Shown here piece by piece: positions 5,397 through 5,504 of a stretch of DNA of 64,000 nucleotides. The translations under genes and the position numbers were made by a program. The stretch spans positions 20,162-84,161 of the forward strand of contig CALXCE010000001.1 in assembly GCA_944386725.1 (NCBI GenBank), in the 5' to 3' direction. Under the pieces are notes generated by a model. The model did not search any database. It had not been told where the DNA came from and saw nothing but the letters and a program-made list of their open reading frames with translations. Every line of letters begins with the position of its first letter. The first letter of the stretch is position 1. The DNA comes from an uncultured Clostridia bacterium (GTDB taxonomy: Bacteria; Bacillota; Clostridia; TANB77; CAG-508).

Positions 5397-5504
5397 GGGT
5401 GTTTTTTGGGACGGGGACAAAAAACACCTTTTATATCATTTCTTTTTATAAATTTGTATTTTTTATTTTTTAAGGTGTTTTTTGTCTCCGTCCCCAAAAC
5501 ACCC
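5397..5504. repeat. Composite element: two inverted copies of a 31-33 nt hairpin repeat (GGTGTTTTTTGGGACGGGGACAAAAAACACC) flanking 41 bp of AT-rich DNA
   Basis: 5397-5430 and 5472-5504 are near-perfect reverse complements; each copy is itself a stem-loop; third copy at 46810-46840. Confidence 0.8.

Follow-up and report, generated by a model that had tools for sequence, protein, structure and literature searches.

In the stretch of DNA analysed here (64,000 nt, called the window; positions refer to the whole of it unless a contig is named), an inverted pair of short hairpins lies between the hydrogenase genes hydC and hydB. One hairpin is read through by hydC and the other abuts the Shine-Dalgarno (SD) sequence of hydB, which raises the question of whether the pair is a regulator dedicated to this locus or a copy of a repeat that arrived there. 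The genome of the window is called G000 and its contigs carry C-numbers; the assembly has 1.2 Mb and 29% G+C and is about 92% complete.

Layout of the hydC-hydB junction

The junction and the genes around it contain the following features.

1324-3075, minus strand: hydA, in the same minus-strand gene run as hydC and hydB
3523-5382, minus strand: hydB (NuoF-like hydrogenase subunit), the gene downstream of the element
5390-5396, minus strand: SD sequence AAGGAGG of hydB, native, also found in relatives without the repeat
5398-5428, minus strand: hydB-proximal repeat unit (unit 1), 31 nt, plus strand reading GGTGTTTTTTGGGACGGGGACAAAAAACACC
5429-5473, minus strand: spacer between the units, AT-rich and locus-specific, holding the hydC stop codon (5463-5465)
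5463-5993, minus strand: hydC (NuoE-like hydrogenase subunit), last ~13 codons from repeat and spacer
5474-5503, minus strand: hydC-distal repeat unit (unit 2), plus strand reading GGTGTTTTTTGTCTCCGTCCCCAAAACACC

Units 1 and 2 are inverted copies of a 31-nt hairpin (GGTGTTTTT / GGGGACGGGGAC loop / AAAAACACC), with the positions and sequences given in the preliminary description of this DNA, and the arms of the pair are 28 nt long and 93% complementary. Unit 1 has an 11-bp stem (5398-5408/5418-5428) and a 9-nt loop, which is C-rich on the mRNA (minus) strand and reads UCCCCGUCC; its fold on that strand has -12.0 kcal/mol and z -4.6. Unit 2 folded alone gives -11.6 kcal/mol, also with an 11-bp stem, and its loop is G-rich on the mRNA strand. 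The spacer measures 41 nt by the arms of the repeat finder and 45 nt (5429-5473) by the unit boundaries used here. The order on the mRNA is G-loop unit, AU-rich spacer, C-loop unit, one C, AAGGAGG and GTG. The edge of unit 1 at 5398 is followed by the single C at 5397, AAGGAGG at 5396-5390 and the GTG start codon at 5382-5380, so that the proximal hairpin ends 1 nt before the SD, as first described. HydC ends in ...DGCFGDGDKKHLKK*; its reading frame crosses unit 2, the source of most of the tail GCFGDGDKKH, and terminates within the spacer. Between hydB and hydA (3065-3511, minus strand) there is a very hydrophobic ORF of 148 aa, which is unusual for a hydABC operon.

The junction in related genomes

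HydC in eight same-genus relatives ends in ...VLDELMKEK(S)* or similar and has no repeat-encoded tail, which agrees with the earlier reading of the G000 tail as repeat-derived. Where relatives have a plain junction (G007, G002 and G006), about 10-21 nt separate the hydC stop from the hydB start; in G000 the distance is 80 nt. These relatives keep the identical AAGGAGG between hydC and hydB, in G002 as TAA-AT-AAGGAGG. The element of G000 (106 nt) starts directly after ...GTATTAGATG and finishes right at the SD. It would have taken the place of the last ~7 hydC codons and of a short native intergenic region, leaving a repeat-encoded HydC tail and a longer stop-to-start distance.

Two other origins of the sequence were tried and rejected. 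The element does not carry an SD of its own, the same AAGGAGG being present in element-free relatives. Nor does the spacer look like native intergenic DNA that has diverged: aligned locally with the hydC-hydB regions of eight relatives, it scored no higher than shuffles. Unrelated short repeats occur at the hydC-hydB junction in L011 (G005), L008 (G010) and L009/L010 (G001/G014), and the G005 junction has three AAATCCC(C)AAAAAAGAACCGGCCCT-like units. Judged from these sequences, the junction appears to be a recurrent landing site for repeats.

A dispersed and patchy repeat family

A search with nhmmer and an HMM built from exact matches found 28 units at 20 loci in G000, mostly intergenic, seven of the loci being inverted pairs. 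The repeat is far more abundant than expected by chance (21 matches per strand to the palindromic pattern in G000, none to the reversed-pattern control). The general form of the unit is an A/T-rich stem of 9-11 bp closed by GGTG/CACC and a loop of 9-12 nt with GGGACG. The sequence just outside the stems is not conserved, and the invariant motif is GGGACG in the loop. All seven G000 pairs have, on either strand, the arrangement G-loop unit, spacer, C-loop unit. Private variants are common to both arms within a pair (GGAGAT, GAGGAC, AGGGAC..GTC and GGGGGC). The spacers have no common sequence or length; they range from 6 to 88 nt and are unrelated even where the arms are 100% identical in one genome. 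Such spacers cannot be a conserved component of a MITE or REPIN. Upstream of the pair at grpE-dnaK (C3:89229-89399) a 68-nt block of G-loop unit and spacer is duplicated in tandem, so unit-plus-spacer blocks can be copied locally.

Two further hairpins of the window, both noticed earlier, were found at their places.

46810-46840, minus strand: single unit before ileS, C-rich loop on the ileS mRNA strand, measured 4 nt 5' of the SD
10572-10600, minus strand: pyrK singleton hairpin, TTGCCAA / GAGGGACGAACCTTT / TTGGCAA, 6 nt 5' of the SD

The stem of the pyrK hairpin is unlike that of the hydC-hydB family and its loop tag GGGACG is identical.

In a scan with one genome per species, the core GTTTTTNGGGACGGGGNNAAAAA was present in at least 118 contigs from about 25 gut Clostridia MAGs. 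Among the matches listed, these MAGs are uncultured gut 'Clostridium sp.', 'Clostridia bacterium' or similar, and come from rabbit, zoo animals, sheep, chicken and human. Core-positive genomes show almost no variation in the core TGTTTTTTGGGACGGGGTCAAAAAACA, and the outer stems co-vary between genomes (GGTG/CACC, GATG/CATC, GCTG/CAGC and ACTG/CAGT, with extensions such as AGCGATG/CATCGCT). G000 itself holds the compensatory variant GGTGCTTTT/AAAAGCACC. The compensatory changes of the outer stem indicate that the hairpin itself is conserved.

The distribution is patchy. The strict pattern was found in 2 of 25 same-genus genomes and a looser pattern in 11 of 201 family genomes. Large sets of units are confined to four of about 225 family genomes (G000, G002, G150 and G213), the last three having 23-30 matches each to their search patterns; the remaining eight positive genomes have 1-3 copies each. 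A search of window 5000-6000 against Rfam, with E up to 10, gave only sub-threshold miRNA-precursor-like matches, which reflect the long hairpin. The hydC-hydB hairpin pair is thus a member of a dispersed, patchy repeat family and not a locus-specific regulator.

Association with RAYT-type transposase genes

Several relatives have two inverted units at a distance of about 861 nt, enclosing an ORF of 258-261 aa with an HUH motif (DNHVHFLL) and a YIHxNP tyrosine motif. This layout of unit, Y1 transposase and inverted unit was found in L118, L098, L126, G150:C11 and G213:C5, and the five transposases are 42-79% identical to one another. The best NCBIfam match of the unit-flanked transposase is NF047646 (REP-associated tyrosine transposase) with 78.9 bits, just below the cut-off of 80; the score is 20.9 bits against IS200 (NF033573) and 47 bits against PF01797 (Y1_Tnp; cut-off 23).

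G000 encodes three RAYT paralogs, on C5, C13 and C23, with 30-41% identity to the L118 protein (tblastn), each bracketed by its own inverted repeats tagged GGGACG or GGGACA. GGGAC[GA] hexamers occur 471 times in G000, 283 of them within the ~15% of the DNA that is non-coding. At least three families (the hydC-hydB family, C and D) and the pyrK singleton present the tag in the loop of a hairpin of 7-11 bp. One tagged repeat family for each RAYT paralog is the pattern of REP/RAYT systems (PMC2817692, PMC3116915). No RAYT adjoining units of the hydC-hydB family was found in the G000 or G002 assemblies; the RAYT paralogs of both genomes have other GGGACG-tagged repeats at their flanks. The family may be an orphan in this genus, or be mobilised in trans. 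The C-terminal extension of the RAYTs is about 110 aa; no significant Pfam match to a C-terminal helix-turn-helix (HTH) was obtained, the best being HTH_19 with E 0.011 in one paralog.

The element between hydC and hydB is quite probably an inverted dimer of a REP-like repeat, propagated now or formerly by a RAYT-type Y1 transposase. The substrate of this HUH enzyme would be the hairpin in its single-stranded form. Neither a transposition event nor an excision footprint was seen for the family. The origin of the spacer is a point against this reading, which leaves it unexplained. Also against it are the missing partner RAYT in G000 and G002, the NF047646 score just short of its cut-off, and a conserved tag in the loop where classical REPs have theirs at the 5' foot. 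The inverted-terminal-repeat layout of the pairs, with a total of about 85-125 nt, would also suit a MITE from a conventional (DDE) insertion sequence, the 31-nt units being its terminal inverted repeats and the spacer its deleted interior. However, neither a target-site duplication nor a conserved flanking target motif was seen around units, copies with identical arms have unrelated spacers, and single units are common. The sole gene found between inverted units encodes the Y1 transposase, and no unit-bounded DDE transposase was found. Such a MITE is hardly credible here.

Further repeat families of G000 lie beside the RAYT paralogs. The second, GGGGACGTAGATAATGTCCCAA, forms inverted pairs, often with tandem GGGACAT units ahead, and flanks the C13 paralog. 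The third has an end module of ~45 nt (GGGGACGTTTCTTTTTGCACATTTTTGTGCAATTAGGGACA) in inverted pairs of ~300 nt and flanks the C23 paralog. The fourth consists of AGGGATTTAGGGACGTTCCTTAAAATCCCT hairpins and lies downstream of the C5 paralog, which is itself at a contig end. Their loci include the following.

Window 19473-19526 and 21889-21956 (C1:39634-39687, 42050-42117), C12:2780-2872, C3:66919-67025 and others: second family
C1:17091-17390, C1:156440-156750, C9:33689-33995, C23:3759/4736-4775 and about 20 more: third family
Window 11968-12003 (C1:32129-32164), C5:901-936, C3:6927-7053 and others: fourth family

Placement of units at gene boundaries

Positions relative to genes were analysed in a pooled set of G000 and 118 loci with 197 units (40 pairs and 117 singles); gene calling in this set was crude, and 85% of the sequence was coding. 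Between co-directional genes the following distances were obtained.

Pairs, proximal end 12-20 nt from the start codon: 23/29
Pairs, distal end -5 to +3 nt from the upstream stop: 14/29
Singles with the C-loop in sense, 12-24 nt from starts: 13/26
Singles with the G-loop in sense, -2 to +12 nt from stops: 28/42

A second test was conditioned on each unit's own intergenic length and restricted to regions with at least 60 nt of non-element DNA. G-sense units were at stop codons in 15 of 25 cases (2.4 expected, P 2e-10) and C-sense units at SDs in 6 of 17 (2.0 expected, P 0.009), and the reciprocal controls showed no enrichment. Orientation depended on position (Fisher P 0.003). Non-element DNA amounted to no more than 27 nt in 15 of 29 pairs, and intergenic regions of up to 30 nt hold less than 3% of the co-directional intergenic bases of G000. 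The boundary bias is real and orientation-dependent, and it is not merely an effect of a compact genome. The non-random placement beside SDs proposed in the preliminary description thus survived conditioning on intergenic length, and the copies do show a positional bias.

The placement rule is two-fold symmetric in DNA. Whether the neighbour is a stop codon on one strand or an SD on the opposite strand, the unit turns the same side towards it; read in the G-loop sense, its 5' side points to the gene boundary and its 3' side to the spacer. Units would settle with this 'outer' side against the boundary, either a same-strand stop codon or an opposite-strand SD, and pairs would as a result bracket an AT-rich, locus-specific spacer. 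Plain mobility alone does not explain the near-nucleotide placement at stops and SDs. A more specific proposal, rather doubtful as yet, is that the RAYT-type enzymes of these Clostridia recognise the loop GGGACG and deposit units at the edges of translated regions with near-nucleotide precision and fixed polarity. If true, REP repeats would have a third architecture, one whose targeting follows gene boundaries, and the host may have co-opted the units as protective hairpins bracketing cistrons.

The position of G-sense units directly behind stop codons would also suit transcription terminators or insulators. A stem-loop in the G-loop direction with a T-rich stretch would stop transcription leaving a gene, and a pair would be a bidirectional terminator with promoter-like AT-rich DNA between its arms. 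T-rich sequence follows many G-sense units, a T run and next a promoter-like site (TTGACA-17-TATACAAT) come after the copy at C2:45000, and 24 elements lie between convergent genes. However, the stem is A/U-rich with only 3-4 G-C pairs, and a consensus scan called no promoter-like or terminator-like site in the hydC-hydB element, that is, neither unit as a terminator and no promoter in the spacer. Pairs also lie inside operons (hydCBA and grpE-dnaK), and units occur between T-box-like leader terminators and the SDs of thrS (a pair, C16:14150-14340) and glyQS (a single unit, C7:32505-32620), where termination would silence essential genes. A terminator function is therefore very unlikely.

Units at orthologous sites in two species

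G000 and G002 were compared site by site. A G000 junction could be assigned to 13 of the 18 unit-bearing G002 loci fetched, and 5 of about 13 G002-occupied junctions also bear units in G000. The shared G000 junctions are as follows.

C6:5209
C26:559
C15:7761
C14:13714
C1:105213, a degenerate copy

The state of a site differs between the species. At ctsR-mcsA there is a pair in G002 and a single unit in G000, and at C26 the G002 pair has a half-deleted arm and G000 has a single unit. Pairs occur at murG in G002 (10-nt spacer) and in G000 (43-nt spacer). The C14 unit has an equal position in the two species, with its loop turned the other way round. Between the two arms of a pair the stem halves recur as direct repeats, which makes pairs collapsible to single units; slippage between these direct repeats could collapse a pair to either kind of single unit. 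Units at orthologous sites mostly show the typical variant of their own genome, pointing to homogenisation or re-insertion.

The preliminary description had set function against random insertion. Random placement is indeed rejected, but the opposition itself fails, because the unit belongs to a dispersed, patchy repeat family, members flank a RAYT-type transposase gene in relatives, the placement rule is two-fold symmetric in DNA, and loop orientation differs between two species at one orthologous site.

Predicted RNA folding and possible roles in mRNA

A 141-nt mRNA segment of the junction is predicted to fold into a single long hairpin (-49.4 kcal/mol, z -8.8) with a stem of about 32 pairs and the 41-nt AU-rich spacer as its loop. 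The predicted hairpin leaves the hydB SD free, 1-2 nt from its foot. The transcribed arms would form either this stem of ~32 bp, with the foot 1 nt before the free SD, or two local hairpins.

RNase J is encoded in G000. RNase III and Mini-III (PF14622, PF00636) were not found in the G000 assembly, and each of 14 relatives has one or both; the reason may be a gap in the assembly (92% complete) or a true loss from a genome rich in long inverted repeats. RNase III was set aside as a processing enzyme, its gene not being found in the G000 assembly.

In Firmicutes, 5'-terminal stabiliser hairpins and intercistronic processing sites, as in the dnaK and gapA operons of B. subtilis, are locus-specific and conserved and have mapped RNA ends. 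The hydB hairpin is like them in lying directly upstream of an SD on a polycistronic mRNA in an organism that encodes RNase J. It differs in being a member of a repeat family.

The units could accordingly be seen as a selected cis-acting mRNA module, to which mobility merely delivers the hairpins. Once the mRNA is cut in the AU-rich spacer, the upstream segment would have its 3' end guarded by the G-loop hairpin behind the stop, and the C-loop hairpin in front of the SD would shield the downstream cistron from RNase J, which degrades RNA 5'-3', or insulate its ribosome-binding site. The orientation-dependent enrichment at stops and SDs, even in long intergenic regions, the unpaired SD of the predicted fold, the presence of RNase J and the 5 of about 13 G002-occupied junctions that are occupied in G000 too all suit such a module. 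So does the hairpin 1-6 nt before the SD at 14-15 of the 20 G000 loci, many of them at housekeeping genes (dnaK, ileS, thrS, glyQS and murG). On the other side, most congeners are without the family and have plain junctions in the same operons, and 79% of the single units in the pooled set do not adjoin an SD. The symmetry of placement at the DNA level is not predicted by an RNA function, and the orthologous C14 unit has the opposite loop orientation in G002. Stem mismatches show no sense-strand preference either, C14 having a G-U wobble and C26 an A-C mismatch on the sense strand. We consider a selected module unlikely as the explanation of the pair.

With the pair read as a REP-like dimer, a role in mRNA stability, processing or translation, as first proposed, would be a plausible secondary effect, and the pair may have a regulatory role at hydB. 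If hydB expression or mRNA decay is affected, this would be a by-product or a later exaptation.

Comparison with known repeat systems

The closest known kind is that of the REP/BIME/REPIN repeats with RAYT (TnpA-REP) of E. coli and Pseudomonas (Nunvar 2010, PMC2817692; Bertels and Rainey 2011, PMC3116915). Like these, the hydC-hydB family consists of short extragenic palindromes in tens of copies, with frequent inverted (head-to-head) dimers that can fold into a larger hairpin and a single-copy Y1 transposase gene between two inverted units. Both have a patchy distribution across species, sit for the most part between co-directional or convergent genes, and now and then occur in frame within a gene. 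Classical REPs carry an unpaired GTAG (or CGTC) at the 5' foot of the stem, whereas the tag of the present family is GGGACG inside a large loop. In REPINs the dimer with its spacer is proposed as the copied unit; spacers of the hydC-hydB family are not conserved between copies, and the pair is no strict REPIN. The hosts are low-GC Clostridia, the copy number is modest (about 20-30), and units are placed within a few nt of stop codons and SDs, unlike the REPs of E. coli and Pseudomonas.

A second comparison concerns the enzymes. TIRYT/TIRtron (Di Nocera et al. 2013, PMC3733652) corresponds to TnpA-Y1 subclass 2.1 (Quentin et al. 2018, PMC6006769) and has also been equated with RAYT Group 1, which is reported in Clostridia (Bertels et al. 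2017, PMC5581495). The flanking inverted repeats of the TIRYT class share GGGG[AT][CG]A[CG], and several paralogs can coexist in one genome. The Clostridia RAYTs are likewise long RAYT-like proteins with a C-terminal extension and inverted-repeat flanks, and GGGGACAA / GGGGTCAA match the TIRYT motif at 7/8 positions. By sequence, the Clostridia proteins resemble this TIRYT/subclass 2.1/Group 1 class. Subclass 2.1 is characterised by a C-terminal HTH (DnaA-like), to which the Clostridia RAYTs gave no significant match. The 2018 survey recorded no REP-like hairpins beside subclass 2.1 genes (Quentin et al., PMC6006769), whereas the flanking repeats here are compact hairpins dispersed genome-wide.

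Rickettsia palindromic elements (RPE) were listed as CGTC-tagged REPs by Di Nocera et al. 2013 (PMC3733652), and the loop tag GACG of the present family is the reverse complement of CGTC. RPE and the hydC-hydB unit are both palindromes open in all frames and able to sit in frame in genes. However, RPE are 100-150 bp long and have no known dedicated transposase, unlike the 31-nt RAYT-flanking units, and CGTC REPs combine stems of 8-9 bp and loops of 4-5 nt with an unpaired tag at the end. The present family departs from known kinds in its loop tag, its compact dispersed hairpins, its non-conserved spacers and its placement at gene boundaries.

The way in which REP-type repeats spread and select their sites has yet to be settled in the field. 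These small gut Clostridia genomes offer a compact natural system, with several RAYT paralogs that each have a loop-tagged hairpin family of their own, and with a boundary-precise, polarity-dependent placement that can be measured.

Coding copies

The family also bears on annotation, accounting for odd C-terminal tails (HydC), in-frame patches (TrmFO) and inflated intercistronic spacers, and such hairpins should not each be read as a dedicated regulator. Direct reading of the sequence shows that the unit has no stop codon in any of the six frames. The gene at C6:1774 ends in a unit-encoded tail, VFGDGGKKHHP*. TrmFO, outside the window at C8:22990-23025, holds an in-frame unit (AFWDGDKKHLF), a patch with exactly the length of the native variable surface loop by comparison with a Thermus TrmFO structure and with relatives. 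The patch is common to G002 (VFWDGAKKHH), and in G006 this position of TrmFO carries a longer, unit-like insert containing RGFGDGEKNH.
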